The position numbers were made by a program, and so were the translations under genes. From positions 6,451-38,450 of the forward strand of contig NZ_JAEDAM010000008.1 in NCBI RefSeq assembly GCF_018420025.1: a DNA stretch of 32,000 nt, read 5' to 3'. Below, in pieces: positions 8,629 to 32,000 of this stretch. This DNA is from Candidatus Vampirococcus lugosii. Its GTDB lineage: Bacteria > Patescibacteriota > Gracilibacteria > Absconditabacterales > Absconditicoccaceae. Position 1 is the stretch's first letter. Every line of letters starts with the position of its first letter. Below the pieces are notes generated by a model that did no database searches, was not told the DNA's origin, and saw nothing but the letters and a program-made list of their open reading frames with translations.

Positions 8629-9009
8629 TTATATTCTCATAATTTCATATTCAACTTTTGATTCTTCCAACTTTGATTTTATAGATTTTTCATTCTTATT
8701 CAAGTTAGATTTTCAAGTTTTTATCTCCAAAAAAACTATTTTATTTAAATTTCATTCACTTAATCAATCAAATACAATATAATCAATTCATTTTCATATA
8801 AAAACTAAATCTTTGTAATTATAATTAAATTGAGGTAAAATAGGAGCAATTTTTTCATTTACTTGTCATAATATTACTGATTTAGATCTTCATATAGCAT
8901 CTTTTCTTACAGATTTATTTTTAATCCAAAAATGTATTTTTGCAAACAAATATCAAATTATTAATCATATTATTATTCAAAATAATATAAAAATAAAATC
9001 CTTTTCCAT
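8629..9009 (-). CDS. Membrane-anchored Holliday-junction-resolvase-like endonuclease (COG4741-type), 126 aa
   Basis: An N-terminal TM (FIFILFGIIIGLIIGYLFA) is followed by GKGIDYIVFDGLSEGNLNKIVFLEIKTGKSNLNKNEKSIK. This matches the restriction-endonuclease-like core of the predicted secreted Hjc-related nucleases. Confidence 0.5.
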
Positions 9010-9196
9010 TATTTTATTAGATAATAAAAAAATTAGTAATTACACTATGTAGTATAATTATTATTAAAATAAAATCAATATATTTTGCTTTTTTTGCTTT
9101 TAAAAATTATTTTACTATATATACTTAAATATAATTAAAATATATTATATTTCAACATTATATTTTATTTGAATAGTTTACAAATTTGTATTTTAC

Positions 9197-12399: not shown

Positions 12400-12699
12400 T
12401 AATATGATAAAATACAATATAAAAAATGAATATTATTGGTTATACTCTCAAAATAATATATGAATATATTGACCTTTTGAATCTGTTTTTGTGAAATGAG
12501 AATTTTTATGAAAAAAATTTAATTGCGATATATCTAATTTAAAAACTTGGAAACATTGTATATGATATTATAATTGAAGGATTTTTTTGTTTGAAGAAAT
12601 TAATGATAAATTATTTTTAAAAAATATTTAAAAATATCTTGCAATATTAAATATTATATGTAAATATAAGTCAATATATTTATCTATAATAAAATAATT

Positions 12700-14430
12700 A
12701 TGCAAAATAATATATCTTTTACGAGTGAAATAATAGAAACAAAAAATGGTTTTTGTGAAACTATTGATAAATTGTTAATATCGGAAGCTTTTCAAAAATC
12801 TTTTGAACTTATTTTAGATAAAAATCTAAAATATAATAAAGATTATTTTTTATGAATATTATCAAAAATAAAAAATAATCAAAATTTGGAAAAATCTGAA
12901 AAAATAGATTTTATACATTTTGTTAGTGATAAAGAAATAATTTTAACTGCAGAAAAAATAATGTTAAAATTAAAAATTATAAATTTTTCTTTGGAAGAAG
13001 TTAAAATATTTTTGGAACAATATCCAGTATCAAAAATTATTGATAATTTAATACAAAAATCTAAAAGAGAAATATTTGAAACTATGGAGTGAGATATAGT
13101 AGAAAAAATGGTTGAATATGATGATTGAGAATTACTTATATATAAACAAATTATAAATAATACAGATAAATATTGTATAAAAAAATTATGAGAAAAATTA
13201 AAAAATGAAGATTTTAAATTTAATGTTATTTTTGATGTACAAGAAATAAATTGAGAAATTTATTCTAAAGTTAAAATATGAGAAAAACAATGATATATTA
13301 AACTATGACAAGAAAATAATACAGAAAATTTAATAAAATTTGATTTAGTTTGAAATTTACAAGAAATAAATTGAGAAATTTATTATGAAGTTAAATTATG
13401 AAATATAGAATGATATATTAAATTATGAAATGAAAATGGTGATATACTTGATATAGAATATATAAAAAAAATTAATTGAAATTCAAATTTGGAACAACAA
13501 AAAGATATAAAACCAAAAAATGAATGATTAGAAATAGCAGTTGAATATCAAAATTTAGATATGAAAGTATTTAGAAAAAAAATAAAAAATATATATAAAT
13601 ATTGTACAAAAAATAATTGAGATTCTATAGAAAAAAAAGATTTTAAATTTGATTGAATTTGGGATTTACAAGAAATAAATTGAGAAATTTATTATAAAGC
13701 TAAATTATGATCAAAAGAATGATATGTTAAATTATGAGATGAAGATAATGCAGAAAATTTAATAAAATTTGATTTAGTTTGAAATTTACAAGAAATTTAT
13801 TGAGAATATTTTTATAAAACTAAATTATGATCAAAAAAATGATATATTAAATTATGAGATGAAAATAATGCAGAAAATTTAATAAAATTTGATTTAGTTT
13901 GAAATTTACAAGAAATAAATTGAAAATATTATTATAATGTATTATTATTACATAATAAAATTCAAAAAGGATGATATATTAAATTATGAGATGAAAATAA
14001 TGCAGAAAATTTAGTAAAATTTGATTGAGTTTGAAATTTACAAGAAATAAATTGAGAATATTATTATATATGAAAAATATTATCTAATAAAATTCAGAAA
14101 GAATGATATATTAAATTATGAGATGAAGATAATGCAGAAAATTTAGTAAAATTTGATTGAGTTTGAAATTTGCAAGAAATTGATTGAGAATATTATTATA
14201 TATGAAAAATATGATCAAAAAAATGATGTATAAGATTATGAGATGAAAATAATATACAAGATTTGATTAAATTTAATTGGGTTTTTAATGTAGAAAAAAG
14301 AAATTGACAAATTATTTATTATGCCTCATTATGAAATCACTTATGATATGTAATTTATTCAGAAAGTATATTTTATTTTAGTAAATCAAAATATGGCGAA
14401 AATAAAATAGAATTAAAAAATATTAAATAA
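12700..14430 (+). CDS. Tandem-repeat protein with about 8 WG-like beta-repeat units (576 aa), tentative family
   Basis: A unique N-terminal region of about 170 aa is followed by 40-44 aa units, FDLVGNLQEINGEIYYKAKLGSKEGYIKLGDENNAENLIK. The motif x-G-Y-I-K-L-G-D-E resembles the WG/KWG repeat core (GyId..Gk). The repeat glycines are encoded by TGA. No signal peptide or TM is evident. Confidence 0.6.
13222..14340 (+). repeat. 120/132-bp in-frame tandem repeats with long near-identical DNA stretches
   Basis: The marker caagaaat(a/t)(a/t)attga recurs at 13240, 13360, 13669, 13789, 13909 and 14041, with a diverged copy (caagaaattgattga) at 14173. Spacings are 120, 309, 120, 120, 132 and 132 bp. 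Blocks such as aatgcagaaaatttaataaaatttgatttagtttgaaatttacaagaaat are identical between units. Confidence 0.85.
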
Positions 14431-14466: not shown

Positions 14467-16425
14467 TTAAAAATAATGTTTTCACATATAATATAAGATA
14501 AATCAATAATAATATCTATGTTGCATTGTCTCTCCTTTCATTCTTTGTTTATCTCAATTATAGTTTTTCATAAGAACATATTTTTCTTGACTATCAGAAT
14601 TATTTATTACTTCATTTATCATTTGATCAAAATTTGTTCTATTTACACTAACTCATTTATTTAATAAATATTTGGATACATTTTTGTATAGATTTTCTTT
14701 ATTTGACAAAATTTGATTTTTTTCAAAATTTGATAATCTATTTGTCCAATCTTCAAGTCTTTTCAAATATAGCATTCATATATCTATATTATTTTGTATA
14801 TCTAATCTTGACTTTCTATTTCTCAATTGATTAAGACTATAGAATCAGTTTCTATCTAGCATATTTTTTATAATTTCACGATCATATCTATTTGGATGTT
14901 TTATCATATCAGAGATAACTATTCATGTTATTTGAAAAAGACCAGATGATCAACTATGGCTTACAGCTTCAGTTTCAAAAATTGATTCCATATAAACTAA
15001 TGCCAAAACATCATTTTTTTCCATTATGTCTAAATTGTAATTATCAAATTTTTCCAATATAATATTAATTATATCTTGATATCTTTCAACTATTTCATTT
15101 TCATTTATATTTTCAAATTTATTTTCATCATTTTCATCATTTTCATCATTTTCATCATTTTCATTAATTTCTATACTTTCATTTTCATTATTTCATAATA
15201 TAATTTCATATATATTTATTTCTTGACCAATATTTATTCTATTTATATTACTAATTCAATTGTTTTGATTTATTACAAATTGTTTAAAATCACTCCACTT
15301 CATAGAAGTATGATCAAATAATTTATTAAAAATACTTCTCATATTATCTCAAGATTGAATTTTATATATTCATTTTTCATTATCAAATCAATTTATATTA
15401 TTCAATCATTTTTTGAAATTGTTTATTATTTCTATTTCAACATTTTCATCACTATCATCTATTTCAATATTTTCATCATTTTCATCTATTTCAATATTTT
15501 CATCATTTTCATCTATTTCAATATTTTCATCATTTTCATCTATTTCAATATTTTCATCAATTTCATCTATTTCAATACTTTCAACACTATCAATATAAGT
15601 TTTATTATTTTTTATAAATTTTATTAATTTTTTATTTTGTATATTTCATTTATTATCAATATTGTCATCATAATACATTTCAAATATATTTATCAAATTT
15701 ATTTTATCTCATATATTTAATAAATTTTGATTATTAATATTTCTGTTTCATCAAAAATTTGTTTGATCTTGCTCCCTTATATATTTATAAAATTCTCATT
15801 GTGATATTCATGTTTCTTCAAATAAATTATTATAAATATTACTTAACCAGTAATCTCTACCTTGATTTATAATAATATTTCAATTTTCTTGTATATCATT
15901 ATATTTTGAATTTATATATTTATCAAATATATCAATAGAAACTGATTTAGAATTAGATTCTAAATTTTCTGTAGAATTATTTCAATTTATTCATTTTATA
16001 TGTTCTGATAAATCTTCTTGTGTATATGAAACAACTTGTTGTATTTCTTTTTCTTGTTGTTTTAATAATTCTTGATATTCAGGAGTTTCTCAAAATTTTT
16101 TTTCTATTAAATAATCAAAAACTTTAATTATATTTATTTTATCTCATATAGAAATAATATTTATATTTGATATTTTACTTACATTTTCAACAGCTTCAAA
16201 AAAATCGATCTCGCTTATATCTATTCAAAATAAAAATTCAGTTTGTTTATTGAAATTATTATATATTTTATTTAAATTATCTCATCTTGAGATTGTATAT
16301 ATTCAAGTTTCATTATCAAAATTATCAATATCATTAAATTTACTAATTATATTTTTTATATAATCTTCAATATTATAAATATCATTATTTTCTTCAATAG
16401 TATCTGAAATTTTTTCTAAATTCAT
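14467..16425 (-). CDS. LysM-domain lytic transglycosylase (SLT family) with acidic repeat linkers (652 aa)
   Basis: Two LysM-like segments (GIYTISRGDNLNKIYNNF; GIYKIQSGDNMRSIFNKLF...INIGQEINIY) precede a C-terminal SLT catalytic signature LALVYMESIFETEAVSHSGSSGLFQIT (the E-S...G-L-x-Q-I motif). Confidence 0.75.
15121..15163 (-). repeat. 9-bp coding tandem repeat (attttcatc x about 4.5) encoding (NDE)n
   Basis: The sequence attttcatcattttcatcattttcatcattttcat is directly visible. It translates as ENDENDENDENDEN on the minus strand. Confidence 0.85.
15453..15590 (-). repeat. 27-bp coding tandem repeat (about 5 copies) encoding (ENIEIDEND)n
   Basis: tcatctatttcaata(t/c)ttt recurs at 15455, 15482, 15509, 15536 and 15563, an exact 27-bp period. 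It also generates two spurious plus-strand ORFs in the supplied track. Confidence 0.9.
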
Positions 16426-16541
16426 TTTTTACATAATTTATGTATAAAAATATAATTATATTATATATATAAATTATGTATTGTCAAAAAATAACAATTT
16501 TTTGAATTATGATAACAAATAATAATATAAAATATTAAGAT

Positions 16542-19861: not shown

Positions 19862-19987
19862 ATGAAAAACTTCACAAACCTACTTTCTATTATCTTCCTA
19901 ATTTGTCTAGGATTACTTGCTTTTCATAGCAAATCTAAAATTGATTTTTCTTCAAAAATATATATTCTAATTAAAAAATTTATTTAA
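19862..19987 (+). pseudogene. Duplicated 5' fragment of the GT39-like gene (41 codons: N-terminal TM helix, then unrelated tail)
   Basis: MKNFTNLLSIIFLICLGLLAFHS matches MQNNITKFTNLLSIIFLTCLGLLAFHS at 21560. Homology ends at 19931, and the frame terminates at TAA 19985-19987. Confidence 0.55.
19871..19931 (+). repeat. Direct repeat, left copy (61 bp)
   Basis: ttcacaaacctactttctattatcttcctaatttgtctaggattacttgcttttcatagca is 59/61 identical to 21581-21641. Weaker similarity extends back to the ATG, with a 12-nt indel. Confidence 0.9.
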
Positions 19988-20000
19988 CAAAAACATTTAT

Positions 20001-21434
20001 ATGATTGATTTAAAAGCATTATTAAAAAATTTATTATTTATCTCTGAATGAGAATGATATGTTGAATTCAAAGAAAATTTTGATAAAGAAAGGGATTGAA
20101 AAAATATTTCTGCTATATCAAATATAGCACTTCTAAAATGAAAGGAATTTGGTTATATAGTTTATTGAATTGAAGATAAAACAAAAAAAGTTATTTGAAC
20201 AAAATTCAATCCAAATAATGAATTTTTTTGAAATCAAAATATAAAAATGTGGTATTCTCAAAAAATAACACCAAAACTAGACTTAGAATATCTTGAAATA
20301 GAGTATGAATGAAAAAATATTGTGATAATAAAAATCCCTTCTGCAAGTGATAAACCTATAGAATTTGACTCAAAAGCATATATAAGAATATGAGAATCAA
20401 CAACGACTCTTTCAAAATATCCTGAACTTGAAAGAAAAATATGGAATAATGAAAAAAATAAAAATTTTGAAAAACAATTAGCATCAAATAACCTAAAGGT
20501 AGATGAAATTTTAAAATTATTAGATTATGATAAATACTTTCAATTAAGTAAACAAGAATTACCTACTGAAACTTCAAAATTTCTTGAAAAAATGAATCAA
20601 GACAATTTAGTAAAGTTAAATAATGATTGAACTTATAATATAACTGTATTATGAGCAATTTTATTTGCAAGAAATATTGAAAATTTTTCTATAATAAAGA
20701 GAAAAACTATTAGAGTTATAACTTATGATTGAACAACAAAAGTAAAAAGAAAAAATGATATTGAATGAAAATATTGATATGCTATATGATTTGAATGACT
20801 AATTGATTATATCATATCTCAAGTTTGAAATAATGAAGAGATTACAAAAGCATTAAGAAAAAATACTAAAATTTATCCTGAAATAGCTTTAAGAGAGTTT
20901 ATTGCAAATGCTATAATACATCAAGATTTTTCAGTAACTTGAACTTGATCTCTTATTGAAATTTATTCAAACAGAATTGAAATAACAAATCCTTGAGTTC
21001 CTCTTATAGATACAGAAAGGTTTATAGATCATCCTCCCAGATCTAGAAATGAAGATTTAGCTTCTTTAATGAGAAGGTTTTGATTTTGTGAAGAAAGTTG
21101 ATCATGAGTTGATAGAGCTTTGATAAATATTGAATTATATCAATTACCTGCACCTAAGTTTGAAACTTTTGATGATTTTACAAAAATTACTTTATACACT
21201 CCTAGACCTTTAAAAGATATGACAAAAGATGATAAGATAAGGGCTTGTTATCAACACTGTGTATTGATGTATATAAAAATGGAAGAAAAGATGACAAATA
21301 AAAGTTTAAGAGAAAGATTAAATATTCCAGAAACAAATTATCCAGCTGCTTCAAAAATAATATCTGATACTCTAAAAGCTTGAAAAATAAAAGAATGAGA
21401 AAGATCTAAAGAATATATACCATGGTGGGCTTAA
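20001..21434 (+). CDS. Schlafen-like AlbA_2 (divergent AAA) + HATPase_c_4 + C-terminal HTH protein (COG2865-type), 477 aa
   Basis: The N-terminus has SEGEGYVEFKENF...KNIVIIKIPSASDKPI (AlbA_2 pattern). The central part has REFIANAIIHQDFSVTGTGSLIEIYSNRIEITNPGVPL (HATPase_c_4 / RecG-C-like pattern). The C-terminus has a winged-helix-like MTNKSLRERLNIPETNYPAASKIISD. Gly is heavily TGA-encoded. Confidence 0.7.
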
Positions 21435-23516: not shown

Positions 23517-24893
23517 TTAAATATAATCAAATTTCACAATATTTTTTATGTCAAAAATAGCAAATCATATTTTTATATTTTTATCTAGAAATTTTTGATT
23601 TTTATTTAGAAATAAAGAAACATTATTTTTTAACTGATTTATTTCTGATTGATTTATTCTATTTTCGTTTAGTTTACATTCCAAAAATACAATATTTTCT
23701 TTTTCATCTGTATAAATTATATCTATTTCATTGTTTTTTCTATCAAGCCAGGTTCATATTTTGGTAAAAGTAAAATCAAGATTTCATTTTTTATTTTCTA
23801 AAATCAAAAAATCTTTTACTAACTTTTCAAATTTAAATCATTTGTATTTTTCAAAATCTTTCAAAACATTTTCCAAAACCAAATCATAAAGTCATAATTC
23901 AAATTTATCTTTATTTGAATAAATATACTTAAACCAAAACTCTATAAAATTATCTTTAATTTTGTATTTACTTATATTTTTTTTGCTTTCCAAAAATGGA
24001 TAATCCACTTCTATGATATCATAAATATCTATAAGTTCTTTTAAATATAAATCAATTTCTCAAGTTCAAAGTCATACTTGATCCATTATTTCATTTCTTT
24101 TGTTTTTTCAAACAGAAATAGCTTCTATAATAGCAAAAAATCTTTTATATTTCATACCAAATTCTTCTATCAAAATTTCTTTTCATTCATTTTTAAATAA
24201 TGCAAACTCATCAAAAAATAAGTCTTTTAATATTTGATTTAACTCATATTTATCATAATTTTCTCTATAAATAGATTTTAAATAATAAGCAATTCAACCA
24301 AAAATAGAATAAATATCAAGTAATATTTGATGATTATAATTTTTTCCAAAAATGTCTTTTAGTATCTCTACTTGAGTATCTAAATCAAACTCTTTGATAA
24401 ACAAGTTAAAAGTAGCTCTTTTATAAAGTGGTTCTTTTGAGTTTTCAAAGATTTTTATCATAAGACTTTGTAAACTTCCAAGTACTATTATTTTTTTATT
24501 TGATTTGTTTTGATATTGGTCAATTTTCTTTTGAAAAATAGAAAAAATTGATTTATCAACATTATTAAAATTTTGAAACTCATCTATTACAAGTAAATTT
24601 AAATCAGATTGTAAAAAGAAAAAATCCAAAAAATCTTCTATAGTTTCAAAATTGTATTTTAATCAAGTTTTTTCATAGATATATTTTTCTTGTTTTTGCA
24701 AAAAAACTTTTAGATCTGATTTTTCTACAAATATATAATAAAAATCTTTTTGTAAAATGTTGTTATTTAAGTGAGTTATAAGTTCTGTTTTTCAGACTCT
24801 TCTTTTTCCAAGTAAATAAATAAACTCAAAATTATTTGAAGTTATTTTTTGTGATAAAATTTTTATTTCTTTTTCTCTATTATAAAATTTCAT
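23517..24893 (-). CDS. AAA+ ATPase of the Arch_ATPase/DUF234 type (458 aa)
   Basis: FYNREKEIKIL...FIYLLGKRRVGKTELI (Walker A), LLVIDEFQNF (Walker B), and a C-terminal DUF234-like nuclease-fold segment WLDRKNNEIDIIYTDEKENIVFLECK. Confidence 0.7.
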
Positions 24894-24954
24894 TTTTTAT
24901 GAATTATAGTATAAATTATTTATAGTATAATTATTTTATATTATAATACAAGTT

Positions 24955-27097: not shown

Positions 27098-28174
27098 TTA
27101 TAAATTATTATATAAATTATTTAACTCAACTAAATATTTTTCTAAACTATATTTTCTTACTTCTTCTAATCAATTTTTAATCAAATCATTTCTTAAATTT
27201 AAATCTTCATACAACTTTATAATACTTTTTATTAAATCTTCAACATTTTGTTTTTCAAATAACAAAGAATTTTTATTATCCATCATTATTTCATTAATTC
27301 AAGATATATTTGAAGCTACTAATGGTATTCATATTCAATTTACTTCTAATATAGTCATTGGTAAAGCCTCTCTATGACTTGGAAAAACAAAACAATCTAA
27401 AATATTATAAAAACTCACCATATTATTTACATATCAAATATATTGAATATTTGAAATTCATTTTATTTCTTCTAAAAGTTTCTCTTTATCTGGTCAATCT
27501 CCAGCTACTAAAAACTTTATATCATATCATTTTTTTATCAAATTTTTTGCAGAATTTACAAATTCTTTCCATCATTTTGCCTCATTTAATCTACTAGCAA
27601 ATCAAATAACAAAATCATTTTTATCAAGTGAATATTTTTTTCTTTCAGTTTCTATGTCAAAATTTTCTATTTTTTTAAATTTATCTAAATCTACAAAATT
27701 GTATAATACTTTTACCTTATTATTATCATATTTAGTTTTTTGTAGTATTGCTTTTTTGATAGCATTTGAAACAGCAATATATAAATTAACTTTATTTTTA
27801 AATAAATTCATAAAAAAAGGATATATTTTTCAATCATTAAAAATTGCTCAATGTTCATGTAAAACAAGTTTAATATTTGGGAAAAATAAAGTTTTCAGAA
27901 CTCATCACATTATTTGAGATTTTGCAAGATGACAATGCAGTATTTCAATATTATTTTCTTTTATAAATTTTCTTAATTTGAATAATGGAAAAGAAAATTT
28001 ATTCTTAGAATCATATGTAAAAACATTTTGATGGTCTATTTCAATATTTATATCTCTTTTTCTCAAAGCATAAAGAAAAATATTTGAATTATTTTTTTGT
28101 TTTTCAAATATTCATTTTACAACTGTTTGAGTTCAACCTAATCACAATGTATCAACCATATGTAAAATTTTCAT
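27098..28174 (-). CDS. Glycosyltransferase family 4 (GT-B), 358 aa
   Basis: MKILHMVDTLGLGGTQ...FVFPSHREALPMTILEVNGIGIPLVASNISGINEIMMDNKNSLLFE carries the E-x7-E / GT1_4 C-terminal signature. Confidence 0.8.
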
Positions 28175-29502
28175 TACTTCACTTTACTTATAAAATATAA
28201 ATATTTTCAATTATCTAAGGATAAAATATCTTCTTGAATAATAAAATTAATTTCAACATCATCACCTAAAATAATTAACAACTTATCTTTTAATATTTTA
28301 GATTCTTTATTCCAATCATATTTGTCATTAATAACTACTTTTATATTTATTATTTTTCTAGTCTCTTGTATAAATTGATATTTTTTTATTGAATATAATC
28401 AATAAAAAGATGTTGTAAGTGCTGTTGAATCAAATGTTCATTTTTTAGTTTTTATTAAAGTTCAAACTCTACCTTCTATTCTTTTTATCTCAAATTCATT
28501 TTCTGACCTTATTCATATATCTCAAATTTCATACCTAATCAAAGGCATTGAAAAATTATTTAAAGTTGTTATATAAATTTTTCAATTTTCTCAAGGCTTT
28601 ACTGGATTTAAATTATGATCCAATATTTCTGCATAATTTTGTAAAATATTTATTTCTAGGTTTTCATTTCAATCTCTACTACAAGCAATATCTCAAACCT
28701 CTCTACTTCAATACCTATTTATAATTTTACAATTAAAAACTTCTTTTATAAGTTCTTCCATATCTGGATATAGAGTTCATGCAGAAGTAAGAATTCATCA
28801 TTTTGGAGAATAAACATCTAAATCATTTTCTTTTATAAATTTTGCAAGTTCATAAATAGATGAAACATAAGCCTCTATAACTTTTGGTTTAAATGAATTA
28901 ATAGTTTTTACATATTCTTTCATATTTTCTTCTGTCATTTTAAAACTATTACATTCAACTCTATTATAAAGCCAATTTTGTAATCTTTTTGCTAAAGTTT
29001 CTTTTTAAACAAGTAAATCTCTTTCTGATCACCAAAGTCTAAGTTCTTTTTCTCAAATATCTTTATTTAAAAAAGTCATAAAATAAAACTTTGTAGCAAC
29101 TTTCCAATCTTGTAAAACATTATCTTGAATAAATTTTACAGGCTCTCATGTACTTCATCAAGATGTATTTTCAAAAGTCTTTCTATTATTTTTAGATTTG
29201 TCTTGTAAATTATCAAACTCTTTTCTTAAGATTTCTTTATTTGTAATAGGAAGATTTTTAAAATTTTCTAAATTTACTTCTAGCTTTTCATTTACTAATT
29301 CATATTTTTCTAAAATATTTTTATAGTAAGTAATATTTTTATAACTATAAATTAATATTTTTTTTAATTTTTCATTTTTTAGGTTTCTCTTTTCTTTATT
29401 TGAAAGTTTATCAGTATTTTTAATTTCCTTAAAATAATCATAACTTTTTTGTCATGAAATTTTTAATAAAAATAAGATAATATATTTTCTCCAGTTTAGC
29501 AT
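28174..29502 (-). pseudogene. CapK/PaaK-like adenylate-forming ligase (capsule biosynthesis type) interrupted by one in-frame TAA (codon 166)
   Basis: The AMP-binding signature TSGGSTGEPVKFIQD is followed by ...ELRLWGSERDLLV-TAA-KETLAKRLQNWLYNR... in the same frame (TAA = plus-strand tta 29005-29007). The rest is open to TAA 28174-28176, which overlaps the GT4 ATG (TAATG). Confidence 0.65.
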
Positions 29503-29519
29503 AATTTTTTTATAAATTA

Positions 29520-29624
29520 TTAAATTTTAATTTTATTCTTTATATAATCAATAATATCTTTTGTTTTTAAAAAAGCTTTTCACTTTCTTTTAAATATCTC
29601 ATAATAATATTTTTTTGTTGTCAT
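29520..29624 (-). CDS. Possible small ORF (34 aa) MTTKKYYYEIFKRKGKAFLKTKDIIDYIKNKIKI; may be a gene remnant
   Basis: Its first 13 codons and upstream leader are conserved with 30822-30887. No family recognised. Confidence 0.2.
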
Positions 29625-29646
29625 AGTGGTTAAGTTAAAGGTTAAA
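29586..29646 (-). repeat. Conserved 61-bp block, copy 1
   Basis: tcttttaaatatctcataata(a/g)tatt(t/g)ttttgttgtcata...ttaaaggttaaa is shared with 30849-30909. Confidence 0.8.
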
Positions 29647-29681
29647 ATGGAAAATTTTTCTCCAGCCAATGGTTGGATTAT

Positions 29682-30710
29682 TTAATCCAATAAATTCATC
29701 TCTCTTTCTATTTCTTCAAGTGTTGGAAGCAATCATTTCAAATCTTCTGGTAAATCTTCTTTTGTGATATAAGAAGCAACTCATATAGGTTTATTGACAT
29801 CTTTTAGTGCATATTCTACTATTAACCTATTTTTGTCTTTACAAAGAATTATTCAAATAGGTAAATTTTCTCATTCTATCATATCTTGTTTTTCAAGAGC
29901 AGATAAGTACATATTCATCTTTCAAGTATATTCAGATTTGAAATTCCCAGCTTTTAGTTCTATAACAACAAAACATTTTAATTTTCTATGATATAAAAGC
30001 AAATCAATATAAAAATCTTCTCATCAAATTTCAAGTTTTACTTGTCTTCAAACAAAACTAAAATAAGTTCAAAAATTTTTCAGAGTTTTTTCTATTGAAG
30101 TAACCAAAAGATCTTCCAAAGTTTTTTCCAAAAAAGGTTCCTCCAATGAAAGCAGACTAAAATCATAACTATCTTTTACAAGCAAAGATAAATCTCAATT
30201 ATTTTTTAAATCAGGTAGAGTTTCATCAAAATTTGTTTGTCTCAAAGCCCATTTTTCAAAAGCTTTAAAATTAAGCTGTTTTTCAAGTTCTCTTTTGCTC
30301 CATCTTTCTCTTATGGACATTTTTATATAAAACTCTTTTCTTAAATCATCTTTTCAATCTCAGTAATTTGTTTTATCTAATATAAAAATATGATGACTCC
30401 ATGATATTTGTGCAACCAGTGGTTGCATTTTTAGATTATCTTTATATGAAATATATAATTTTTTCATATATAAAAGATTTCTTTTAGAAAAACCTCTTCT
30501 AAATTCAGCTTCTAAATCTTTGCTAAGTTTTCAAATAATATCATCTCACCATTTAGCTTTTTCTTGTTTTTCTATGATAGATTTTCAAATATTCCAGTAA
30601 AGATGTATAAGTTCTTTATTTACTGACTTTAAAGCATTATTTCTTGCTTGTAATATATTTTGCTTAATCTCTATTAAGAAATTTTTATAATCATTTGAAA
30701 TTTTTGTCAT
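29682..30710 (-). CDS. DUF1016/YhcG-type PD-(D/E)XK nuclease, paralog A (342 aa)
   Basis: N-terminal helical domain LYWNIGKSIIEKQEKAKWGDDIIGKLSKDL...ISWSHHIFIL. C-terminal nuclease core FSFVGRQVKLEIGGEDFYIDLLLYHRKLKCFVVIELKAGNF...GKMNMYL...PIGIILC. Confidence 0.75.
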
Positions 30711-30795
30711 AATAATATTTTTTCATTATTAAATCTTATCCCTTATAATTATTTTTTATGATTTTTAAAGTTAAAAAAGATTAATTACAAAAAGT
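30711..30795 (-). repeat. Conserved 85-bp upstream (promoter/leader) region, copy 1
   Basis: By my hand alignment it is about 90% identical to 31913-31998 (a few mismatches and one indel), starting immediately 5' of the nuclease ATG. Confidence 0.85.
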
Positions 30796-30821
30796 CTTGT
30801 AAAAACTTTATATCAATTTTG

Positions 30822-30887
30822 TTAAATCAAAAAATCTTTTTTCATAGATCTTTTAAATATCTCATAATAGTATTGTTTTGTTGTCAT
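30822..30887 (-). CDS. Possible small ORF (21 aa) MTTKQYYYEIFKRSMKKDFLI; a truncated homolog of 29520-29624
   Basis: It shares its start and first 13 codons with the other copy and then diverges. Confidence 0.15.
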   Translation of the reverse strand: MTTKQYYYEIFKRSMKKDFLI

Positions 30888-30909
30888 AAGGATTTTATTA
30901 AAGGTTAAA
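30849..30909 (-). repeat. Conserved 61-bp block, copy 2 (contains the stop codon of paralog B)
   Basis: See 29586-29646. Confidence 0.8.
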
Positions 30910-31912
30910 GATTTTCTAACTGTCTTTTAAAGTCTTCTTTTTTTGGTAAATAAAGATTATACTCTTTTGCAAAAATCATATTTTCTCATTCTGGAAGAGT
31001 GTATTCAACAACAATATCATTTTTTTCTTTACATAGAAGTATTCAAATAGTTTTATTTTCAAAATTTTGTTTTATTTCTCTATCATAATAATTCACATAC
31101 ATTTGCATTTGTCATATATCACCATGAGTTATTTTTCAGATTTTTAGATCTATCAAAACAAAACATTTAAGTAGTCTATTATAAAAAACTAAATCTACAT
31201 AAAAATGATCTACTCCAGCTGAAAATCTCTTTTGTCTTCATACAAAAGTAAATCATTTACCAAGTTCTAGTAAAAATGTTTCTAAATTATTTATAATAGC
31301 TGTTTCAAGCTCTGTTTCTGAATATGATGATCTTTCCTCTAATCATAAAAACTCCAAAATATATGGATCTTTTAAAACATCATTATAGTTTTCTATAATT
31401 TGTCATTTTTTAGATAATTCCAAAACTCACTTTTTATCTTTACTAAGTGTAAGTCTTTCATAAAGTGATGAATTTATTTGTCTATCAAGCTCTCTTACTG
31501 ACCAGCTATTTTCTATAGTTTCTATTATATAAAAACTTCTTTCATTTTCATCTCTAACGGATAATAGTCTTACTATATGAGTCCAAGATAATTTCCTCAT
31601 CAGTGATGAGGATTTTTCAAAATCTGGAAAATAAGTATAGAAATACCTCATTCTTTCTATATTTTGCACAGAAAAACCTTTTCAAAACTCTTTTGTTAAA
31701 TCTTTTGATAATTTTTTTAATAATTCTTTTCAATATTCAGCTCTTTTTTCTCATTTTTGCTCATATTCAACTATATATTTTCAAATACTAAAATATGTTT
31801 CTACTAAAATAGTATTTACTAAATTTATTGCTTTTTGTTTATTATTAGAAACTATTTTTCAAATCTCTTTTATAAGCATACTGTAATCGTTATTTGAAGA
31901 TATATTTGTCAT
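30905..31912 (-). CDS. DUF1016/YhcG-type PD-(D/E)XK nuclease, paralog B (335 aa)
   Basis: YFSIGKYIVEYEQKGEKRAEYGKELLKKLSKDL...LSWTHIVRLL, followed by FTFVGRQKRFSAGVDHFYVDLVFYNRLLKCFVLIDLKIGKI...GQMQMYV...TIGILLC. It absorbs the 80-aa standard-code ORF 31427-31669. Confidence 0.75.
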
Positions 31913-31998
31913 AATAATATTTTTTCATTATTAAATTTTAATTCTTTATAATTATTTTTTATTATTTTTAAAGTTAAAGAAGATTAATTACAAAAAGT
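31913..31998 (-). repeat. Conserved upstream region, copy 2 (runs to the window edge)
   Basis: See 30711-30795. Confidence 0.85.
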
Positions 31999-32000
31999 AT

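Follow-up and report, generated by a model that had tools for sequence, protein, structure and literature searches.

Two genes for PD-(D/E)XK nucleases of the YhcG/DUF1016 family, here called gene A and gene B, lie in tandem near the end of a 32-kb stretch of DNA (the window; 32,000 nucleotides (nt), 20% G+C) from Candidatus Vampirococcus lugosii (contig NZ_JAEDAM010000008.1, positions 6,451 to 38,450 of the forward strand), and the region that holds them is probably a recombination-made tandem array of one expression slot, which heads a polysaccharide gene cluster and contains two old YhcG subtypes. One unit of this array appears to comprise the last ~20 codons of an upstream gene, an intergenic leader of ~75 nt, a YhcG gene and the first 13 codons of a downstream gene. 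The two units stand head to tail, are collinear, are joined at 30848|30849 (window positions are used throughout) and carry flanks that have diverged to a similar degree (9% and 13%), as expected if one event had duplicated both flanks. An earlier note on this DNA had proposed a recombination-based cassette array, with gene swapping between conserved junctions, or a shared strict regulatory leader. The recombination-based array and its gene swapping are partly supported, by the tandem units and by the variability of related loci, whereas the notion that the conserved junctions are special sites is not.

Two old YhcG subtypes

The array genes are located on the minus strand and contain in-frame TGA codons (15 in gene A and 14 in gene B), which align with conserved glycine positions, for example in FVGRQ; code 25 (UGA = Gly) therefore applies. 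Both genes are predicted to encode full-length members of the YhcG/DUF1016 family: each matches the full profile of DUF1016_N (PF17761, 1-137/137; E ~1e-43 for gene A and ~2e-49 for gene B) and the full length of YhcG_C (PF06250; E 2e-54 and ~8e-58, respectively) in Pfam, and the D..(D/E)XK catalytic core is intact in both, reading IDL..IELK in gene A and VDL..IDLK in gene B. Their nuclease activity is a prediction, as it is for the family in the literature (PMC9881135, PMC4316617). PADLOC lists the YhcG family as the single-gene phage-defence candidate PDC-S02, and the titles and abstracts of the literature that mentions PDC-S02 report no experimental validation of it. A solved structure detectable by sequence was not found for the family, and to our knowledge no function has been demonstrated for it.

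The earlier note had recognized two same-strand, only distantly similar nuclease genes with differing catalytic cores, and this description holds. The two proteins are 34% identical in a global alignment and 37% identical over aligned columns, and the nucleotide identity over aligned codons is 56%, falling to 52%, the background level, at third positions. Both proteins match PDC-S02, with different best PADLOC models (PDLC04831, E 7e-122, for gene A; PDLC04807, E 6.5e-145, for gene B). Gene A is 47-54% identical to proteins of cyanobacteria and other phyla, and gene B is 59-65% identical to proteins of Bacteroidota, Melioribacteraceae and other Patescibacteria; because each has closer matches in other phyla than in the gene beside it (34%), the two are placed in different subfamilies and appear to be old, separate YhcG subtypes. 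Orthologues of gene A (69-99% amino acid identity) are found in the related contigs L002, L003, L004, L006, L007 and L008, and an orthologue of gene B (77%) in L008.

Flanks as probable copies of neighbouring gene ends

The upstream flank (30711-30797 versus 31913-31999) is identical at 80 of 88 aligned positions (91%) with one indel, the match running on through ATGACAAA, and the downstream block, termed block 2 (29586-29646 versus 30849-30909), is identical at 53 of 61 positions (87%). Random segment pairs of the same window, aligned likewise, gave 54 ± 3.5% with a maximum of 67%, and each flank is confined to its two sites within the 32 kb. These values agree with the ~90% identity over ~85 bp upstream and the near-identical 61-bp downstream block, carrying a tiny open reading frame (ORF) that then diverges, which had been estimated by eye. 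Set against the 56% nucleotide identity (52% at third positions) and 34% amino acid identity of the aligned coding sequences, flanks of 91% and 87% exclude plain tandem duplication alone, and the earlier statement that this is no old simple duplication is upheld. The unequal similarity of the parts of a unit requires either a replacement of the cargo or a donor from another strain.

The upstream block starts exactly at a stop codon (..YFL* in copy B, at the window edge; DFL* in copy A; an asterisk marks a stop codon), and each copy of block 2 carries the start of a tiny ORF (MTTKKYYYEIFKRKGKAFL... and MTTKQYYYEIFKRSMKKDFLI). The leader thus appears to be the whole intergenic region that begins at the stop codon of the preceding gene, and block 2 appears to be the start of a gene; the flanks do not resemble sites dedicated to recombination and can be read as copies of neighbouring gene ends. 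In function they are likely to comprise a promoter together with a 5′ untranslated region and a start codon, so that each nuclease would be expressed. A promoter scan at 20% G+C returned 29 matches (21 ± 4 expected), which are uninformative because the DNA is so A+T-rich, and the TTGTAA-17-TAAAAA of the leader was below threshold. Both leaders also contain an upstream ORF of 12-13 codons (MKKYYYDK..; 30685-30726 and 31890-31928) in another frame than the nuclease starts, and this ORF has the appearance of a duplicated downstream-gene start. The features of the region, all on the minus strand, are as follows.

31988-32000, minus strand: end of a gene (..YFL) and its TAA stop, from translation; the gene itself lies past the window end; homologous to the DFL* at 30793-30785.
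31913-31987, minus strand: leader copy B, the whole intergenic region 5′ of gene B; matches copy A at 91% identity; no third copy elsewhere in the window.
31928-31890, minus strand: 12-codon upstream ORF MKKYYYDKYIFK in leader copy B, from translation; overlaps the gene B ATG.
30905-31912, minus strand: gene B, B-type YhcG/DUF1016 PD-(D/E)XK nuclease (predicted), 335 amino acids, code 25; Pfam and PADLOC.
30849-30909, minus strand: block 2 copy B, from 87% identity and the ORF; gene B stop, 22 nt and the first 13 codons of the putative downstream gene (MTTKQYYYEIFKR), ending at 30849.
30785-30848, minus strand: putative duplication junction and 20-codon 3′ remnant LGKKIFGFNKIDIKFLQDFL* (remnant 30847-30785), from translation.
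30711-30784, minus strand: leader copy A, intergenic region 5′ of gene A, from alignment with copy B.
30726-30685, minus strand: upstream ORF MKKYYYDKNFKGL in leader copy A, from translation; overlaps the start of gene A.
29682-30710, minus strand: gene A, A-type YhcG/DUF1016 PD-(D/E)XK nuclease (predicted), 342 amino acids, code 25; Pfam and PADLOC.
29647-29681, minus strand: 35-nt spacer, present only after gene A and also in L006; includes a small G+C-containing hairpin (29661-29677), possibly a terminator.
29520-29646, minus strand: block 2 copy A (29586-29646), extending as a 34-codon remnant ORF (29520-29624), from alignment and the ORF.
29599-29615, minus strand: 17-nt core AAAAAATATTATTATGA; exact also at 30707-30723 and 31909-31925, and with 2 mismatches at 30862-30878.

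The junction between the units

The block 2 ORF, MTTK(K/Q)YYYEIFKR, continues for 34 codons after gene A, and its match after gene B is exactly 13 codons long, breaking at 30849. In L006, a closely related contig of the V. lugosii type, the ORF is longer, at 53 codons, and a hypothetical protein of Candidatus Vampirococcus lugosii matches it at 100% identity. Block 2 copy A appears to be what is left of the 5′ end of a decayed gene, the first in the polysaccharide cluster. Neither the 53- nor the 34-amino acid ORF has a Pfam match; a large protein search started from the block 2 ORF gave no match other than the identical V. lugosii ORF, and no intact homologue was present in the related loci that were fetched. 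A tblastn search of plasmids with the tail of the ORF (..DLDNPKTFN) gave six matches with E values of 0.2-9, three of them on genes for ATP-grasp amidoligases.

At the joint 30848|30849, codon 13 of the downstream gene abuts a 20-codon 3′ ORF remnant, which ends at the opening stop codon of the leader. This remnant (LGKKIFGFNKIDIKFLQDFL) resembles ..NIIDLEKILSEYL, the C-terminus of an AAA_14/DUF4143 ATPase whose gene immediately precedes the A-type gene in L004 and L005. It probably represents the 3′ end of the upstream gene and has no PADLOC match. The arrangement identifies 30848|30849 as an apparent head-to-tail tandem-duplication junction, at which the distal end of one unit would have been joined to the proximal end of the other. 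A Logan contig from a separate assembly (L009, SRR13241709; 1230 nt, ending inside the leaders) is 100% identical to 31934-30705 and so takes in gene B, its block 2 copy, the junction and leader copy A. The Logan contigs that match the window derive from the runs SRR13241708 and SRR13241709.

The edge of the array differs between two close strains. L006 is 97.5% identical over gene A and unrelated to the window beyond 29569 (L006 position 1165), and this position appears to be a strain-level replacement breakpoint of the polysaccharide cluster, situated inside the decayed first gene next to the array. In L006 the nuclease gene is followed by a longer remnant of the ORF and then by a glycosyltransferase gene, and the CapK-like gene that follows in the window is absent.

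The 17-nt core and searches for mobility machinery

The core AAAAAATATTATTATGA closes the leader and supplies the ATG of the nuclease gene, and it recurs in block 2 in the same KKYYY frame. It consequently brackets each nuclease body, exactly in the case of gene A and with 2 mismatches in the case of gene B. The sequence is of low complexity; the chance that two random 100-nt pieces of the window share a match is ~0.0008 for a 17-mer and ~0.007 for a 13-mer, and judged from L006 and copy B the ancestral match was probably only 13 nt long. It is possible that the core is the trace of an older insertion or promoter-capture event. The region between the units is a full double flank and not a single core.

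Machinery for site-specific movement was sought in the window and in the related loci. No integrase, recombinase or transposase was found by Pfam among 18 of the larger ORFs of the window, a few ORFs being named by eye only, and no recombinase was called in L002-L008. The window contains no transfer RNA that could act as an integration target. No attC-type hairpin or symmetry was detected in the flanks, and by inspection the GTTRRRY core is absent (GTTAAAA and GTTAAAG fail at position 7). Folding against shuffled sequence gave z scores of +0.98 and -0.22 for the leader and junction regions and -1.6 and -1.2 for the block 2 regions, none of them significant, and Rfam returned only a sub-threshold match to a plant small nucleolar RNA. 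An integron cassette array was considered and rejected, neither attC hairpins in the flanks nor an integrase among the ORFs scanned having been found, and a dedicated cassette system is not supported either, the junctions consisting of neighbouring gene ends. As regards an integrated element of the att type that grew by tandem accretion, the region has the bracketing core, but no integrase was found among the ORFs scanned and no empty site was encountered.

Related arrays in code-25 contigs

The A-type orthologues in L002, L007 and L008 retain 81-84% DNA identity from about codon 5 to the stop codon, and the sequence upstream of them is unrelated; no leader-like sequence was found upstream of the A-type orthologues in L002, L003, L004, L007 and L008. 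When L002-L004 and L006-L008 were compared with the window region by BLASTN, only L006 gave matches outside coding sequence, and short-word BLAST of the flanks against L001-L005 gave, among the matches listed, only A+T-rich chance matches. An exact leader 23-mer was matched once in genome_contigs, in L001 (Marinilabiliaceae, 42% G+C), a match that was taken as chance; the 23-mer had no match in metagenome_contigs or viral_contigs. Neither an empty slot nor a strain with gene B alone in the slot was found.

Arrays of comparable layout, built from other sequences, are present in several of these contigs. L008 carries an A-like gene, a B-like gene and then polysaccharide genes, in the reverse order of the window, with a 66-nt A-type 3′ remnant after the B-like gene and 50-nt repeats bracketing the block. 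In L003, a gene for a third YhcG type precedes an A-like gene, and an 88-nt repeat lies upstream of both. L004 contains, consecutively, an A-like gene, a gene of a fourth type and a B-like gene, the latter two truncated, and lastly an unrelated gene; these four have ~27 nt of upstream sequence and their first 8 codons in common. In L007, three copies of the last ~60 nt of a neighbouring ORF (..EKWHNGHPFADTVLVCY*; FkbM-like by reading only), each with a spacer and first codons, stand ahead of RhuM, A-type YhcG and AlbA_2-type genes. L002 has one A-like gene amid toxin-antitoxin, Abi, RhuM and KilA-N genes, together with several multi-copy families of intergenic repeats. RhuM, AlbA_2 and Abi genes thus accompany YhcG genes in the related contigs, and the variation of array content and order among these genomes is the lineage reshuffling for which the earlier note had proposed to look. 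Neighbouring genes within each genome also share their first codons (MT[KN]IS.., MELKNNDY, MTKEI[IT]TS or MNLQ[DE]), which differ in the orthologues elsewhere. The overall pattern is one of bodies that persist across lineages and of junctions that are renewed in each lineage from adjoining genes. JGI metagenomes yielded only four loci, none of which has a tandem pair; each contains one YhcG match, and the surroundings are phage-like, toxin-antitoxin or IS200/IS605 in kind.

Several further observations were made in these contigs. The first repeat family of L002 (1300-16560) is an eight-copy intergenic repeat of ~85 nt with a perfect palindrome (AATGATTATAATTTAT / ATAAATTATAATCATT), and a second has ~4-5 copies (..CATAGTCTGCTTATAACGAGTGTTCAGGGATAGAAACGATTTAAC..); both are scattered among PemK, AbiEii, RhuM, KilA-N and YhcG genes and small ORFs, and the AbiEii pair is duplicated at 91% identity. 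AlbA_2-type genes occur within the arrays of both L007 and L008. A B-type relative of 447 amino acids with an insertion is encoded in L010 (1-9649), from a bacterium with the standard code, where an SNF2 helicase, a reverse transcriptase, DUF4391, GmrSD and two methyltransferases accompany it in a typical defence island. In L013 (1740-4070), a 142-amino acid C-terminal fragment of an A-type YhcG protein lies beside two ORFs that by eye are TnpB and TnpA of the IS200/IS605 type.

Origin of the array and alternative explanations

In the most likely history, the array would have arisen in one step from a slot, between the upstream gene and the polysaccharide cluster, that was polymorphic in the population, some strains having an A body and others a B body. 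A relative diverged by ~10% would have supplied an allelic segment that was added beside the resident copy, with one end joined by homologous and the other by illegitimate recombination; the addition of such a donor segment would leave both flanks duplicated at a like, moderate divergence around unrelated bodies. By an alternative route, an internal duplication would have been followed by allele replacement of the sister copy, and in either case later gene conversion between the leaders may contribute. V. lugosii encodes ComEC, ComEA and type IV pili, and the uptake of host DNA has been proposed for it (PMC8080830), which makes a recombination route plausible. Expressed together, two divergent nucleases would plausibly give broader protection or DNA degradation.

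Several points weigh against this reconstruction. The population polymorphism on which the one-step model depends is assumed, and, the sequence past 32000 being unseen, the presence of an intact upstream gene ahead of copy B, as opposed to a third unit, is unproven. Block 2 is only tentatively the start of an ATP-grasp (TupA-like) gene, given tblastn E values of 0.2-9 and no Pfam match, and the remnant is tentatively an ATPase tail on a resemblance of 13 residues with no hidden Markov model support. Plain segmental duplication does not account for the bracketing of each body by the core, which may be the mark of a recombination site or of an earlier insertion. The N-termini of A and B across Gracilibacteria have a loose MxLQNNDY pattern in common, and the similarity of first codons may partly be a family trait.

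Concerted evolution offers another, rather unlikely, account, in which A and B are long-time tandem neighbours whose flanks and first codons are kept alike by gene conversion or unequal crossing-over, the conversion tracts stopping where the diverged bodies begin. The adjacency of A and B, or of fragments of both, in three lineages (the window, L008 and L004) would fit such a history, as would flanks that are uniform within a genome and different between genomes and N-termini that match those of the in-genome partner. Conversion, however, needs pre-existing homology, and the flanks copy whichever genes adjoin in each lineage, which argues for their new formation by duplication and against their upkeep since an ancient one; at 30848|30849 the sharp junction has moreover the form of a duplication scar and not of the end of a conversion tract. 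The two processes are not mutually exclusive, and conversion may have followed duplication. It is very doubtful that single genes (YhcG, RhuM, AlbA_2 and others) are swapped site-specifically at the short start-codon core by a recombinase encoded elsewhere, in an integron-like or att-site-like mobile-cassette system. This would explain why the core, in three exact copies and one degenerate copy, brackets each body in frame (chance ~0.001-0.007), why one repeat precedes three unrelated cargo genes in L007, and why eight-copy and four-copy intergenic repeat families lie among the toxin-antitoxin, Abi, RhuM and YhcG genes of L002. Against it stand the lack of a recombinase among the 18 larger ORFs of the window or called in the related loci, the lack of a hairpin or attC-type symmetry (fold z -0.2 to +1.0), a B-to-A repeat that is a full copy of both neighbouring gene ends and not a single core, and an ancestral core match that was probably just 13 nt of low-complexity sequence. 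A bolder form of the idea, to which a small chance is given, supposes a recombinase-independent or trans-acting cassette mechanism in Absconditabacteria/Vampirococcus-type bacteria that would capture single defence-type genes into fixed expression slots, duplicate them there and swap them from slot to slot; the cargo would be YhcG subtypes, RhuM, AlbA_2/Schlafen, Abi and toxin modules, and, by recombination at the start-codon core, an incoming body would inherit the promoter and first codons of the slot. In its boldest variant, the YhcG nucleases may cut near the slot and so drive their own copying in the manner of free-standing homing endonucleases. Such a cassette mechanism, if real, would be a functional analogue of the integron in reduced, naturally transformable Candidate Phyla Radiation (CPR) genomes.

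The shared regulatory leader of the earlier note, taken here as an operator, attenuator or leader peptide under purifying selection that co-regulates both nucleases, is highly improbable and largely refuted. The high identity from the upstream stop codon to the ATG and the short upstream ORF MKKYYYDK.. that overlaps both start codons would suit it, but A-type orthologues with 81-84% DNA identity carry unrelated upstream sequence in other lineages, the fold has no signal above shuffled sequence, no Rfam family is matched, and the upstream ORF has the look of a duplicate of the downstream gene's start. Equal conservation is seen, in addition, in the downstream block and the 3′ gene remnant, although these are pseudogenic scraps. 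An artefact of assembly or whole-genome amplification, in which alleles of a single locus from two strains would have been joined in tandem, is exceedingly unlikely. The V. lugosii data derive from amplified DNA of about ten consortia per experiment (PMC8080830), and Logan contigs break inside a 31-mer shared by the leaders, both of which would allow for such an error; yet the flank copies differ by 9-13% and so cannot be a collapsed or expanded bubble, the unique junction sequence is reproduced exactly by the independent assembly L009, and tandem YhcG pairs recur in the unrelated assemblies L003, L004 and L008. Recent duplication of one slot by ordinary recombination, with two subtypes as its cargo, is the reading favoured here.

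Comparison with known systems

DUF1016 genes are known to ride on mobile elements and to sit in restriction-modification loci, often beside RhuM genes (PMC9881135, PMC4316617). The genes of the window resemble the rest of the family in being full length, in having intact cores and in the company of RhuM genes in relatives, and differ in forming a tandem divergent pair within duplicated flanks, an arrangement of which no description was found in the literature searched.

Parallels for a duplication combined with allelic replacement are provided by the switching of capsule and O-antigen loci and by homology-facilitated illegitimate recombination in naturally transformable bacteria. The V. lugosii array shares with this kind of process its collinear units, its head-to-tail junction, the equal divergence of its flanks and its position at the strain-variable edge of a polysaccharide cluster; it is different in that the units carry cargo of only 34% amino acid identity, which plain duplication cannot produce and which calls for a second event or for another strain as donor. 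Among published systems, the closest analogue is the upstream homology box family of Borrelia (ospE/ospF/elp), reportedly described by Marconi et al. in the Journal of Bacteriology in 1996 (178:5615), in which a conserved upstream region and conserved first codons are said to be joined to divergent bodies and to have been attributed to recombination. The likeness lies in conserved upstream sequence and first codons on divergent bodies; the Borrelia genes, however, encode immune-selected surface lipoproteins, and the shared part encodes a signal peptide, whereas the array encodes predicted cytoplasmic nucleases that share 4-8 codons together with scraps of neighbouring genes. The variable lipoprotein loci of Mycoplasma are a further parallel. 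In chromosomal integron arrays the attC repeats are specific to a species and alike throughout one array. Such arrays are similar to the present loci in their same-strand single-gene units, in genome-uniform, lineage-specific repeats and in accessory, toxin and defence cargo; the present loci differ in that no integrase was found among the ORFs scanned and no attC hairpin in the flanks, and in repeats that are recognizable as the ends of neighbouring genes.

If the favoured reading is correct, the locus is a clear record, on a small scale, of ordinary recombination assembling and rearranging an accessory or defence array in a reduced genome that uses an alternative code: a promoter-bearing slot would have been duplicated, scars included, and then filled with old subtypes, and the same would have recurred in relatives with the ends of other neighbouring genes. 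It also serves as a warning that strong conservation of flanks around diverged genes need not imply a dedicated cassette system. The locus does not show what YhcG proteins do, and two intact, divergent copies under near-identical leaders are convenient material for tests of anti-phage or DNA-scavenging activity in a predatory CPR bacterium.

Genomic surroundings

The array heads a polysaccharide gene cluster, and a few defence candidates listed by PADLOC lie nearby; the defence-island-like context suggested earlier is only partly borne out. The gene next to the array (28174-29526, minus strand) is CapK/AMP-ligase-like and is split by one in-frame TAA at 29005-29007 (..WGSERDLLV*KETLA..), so that it is either a pseudogene or the result of an error in the amplified DNA. 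A Schlafen AlbA_2 protein with HATPase_c_4 (19971-21434, plus strand) and a DUF234/ATPase_2 protein (23517-24896, minus strand; PADLOC PDC-S27) both flank polysaccharide genes. Two large, internally tandem-repeated proteins are encoded at 14467-16428 (minus strand) and 12670-14430 (plus strand): one of the pair combines an SLT transglycosylase domain with stretches of acidic repeats of the ENDENIEID type, and the other, of 576 amino acids, consists of repeated ..NLIKFDLVGNLQEINGEYYY.. units and has no Pfam match. A small membrane-anchored protein at 8629-9039 (minus strand) matches the Endonuc_Holl family (E 1e-36), which is related to archaeal Holliday-junction resolvases, and is a further nuclease of the window with no relation to the array.

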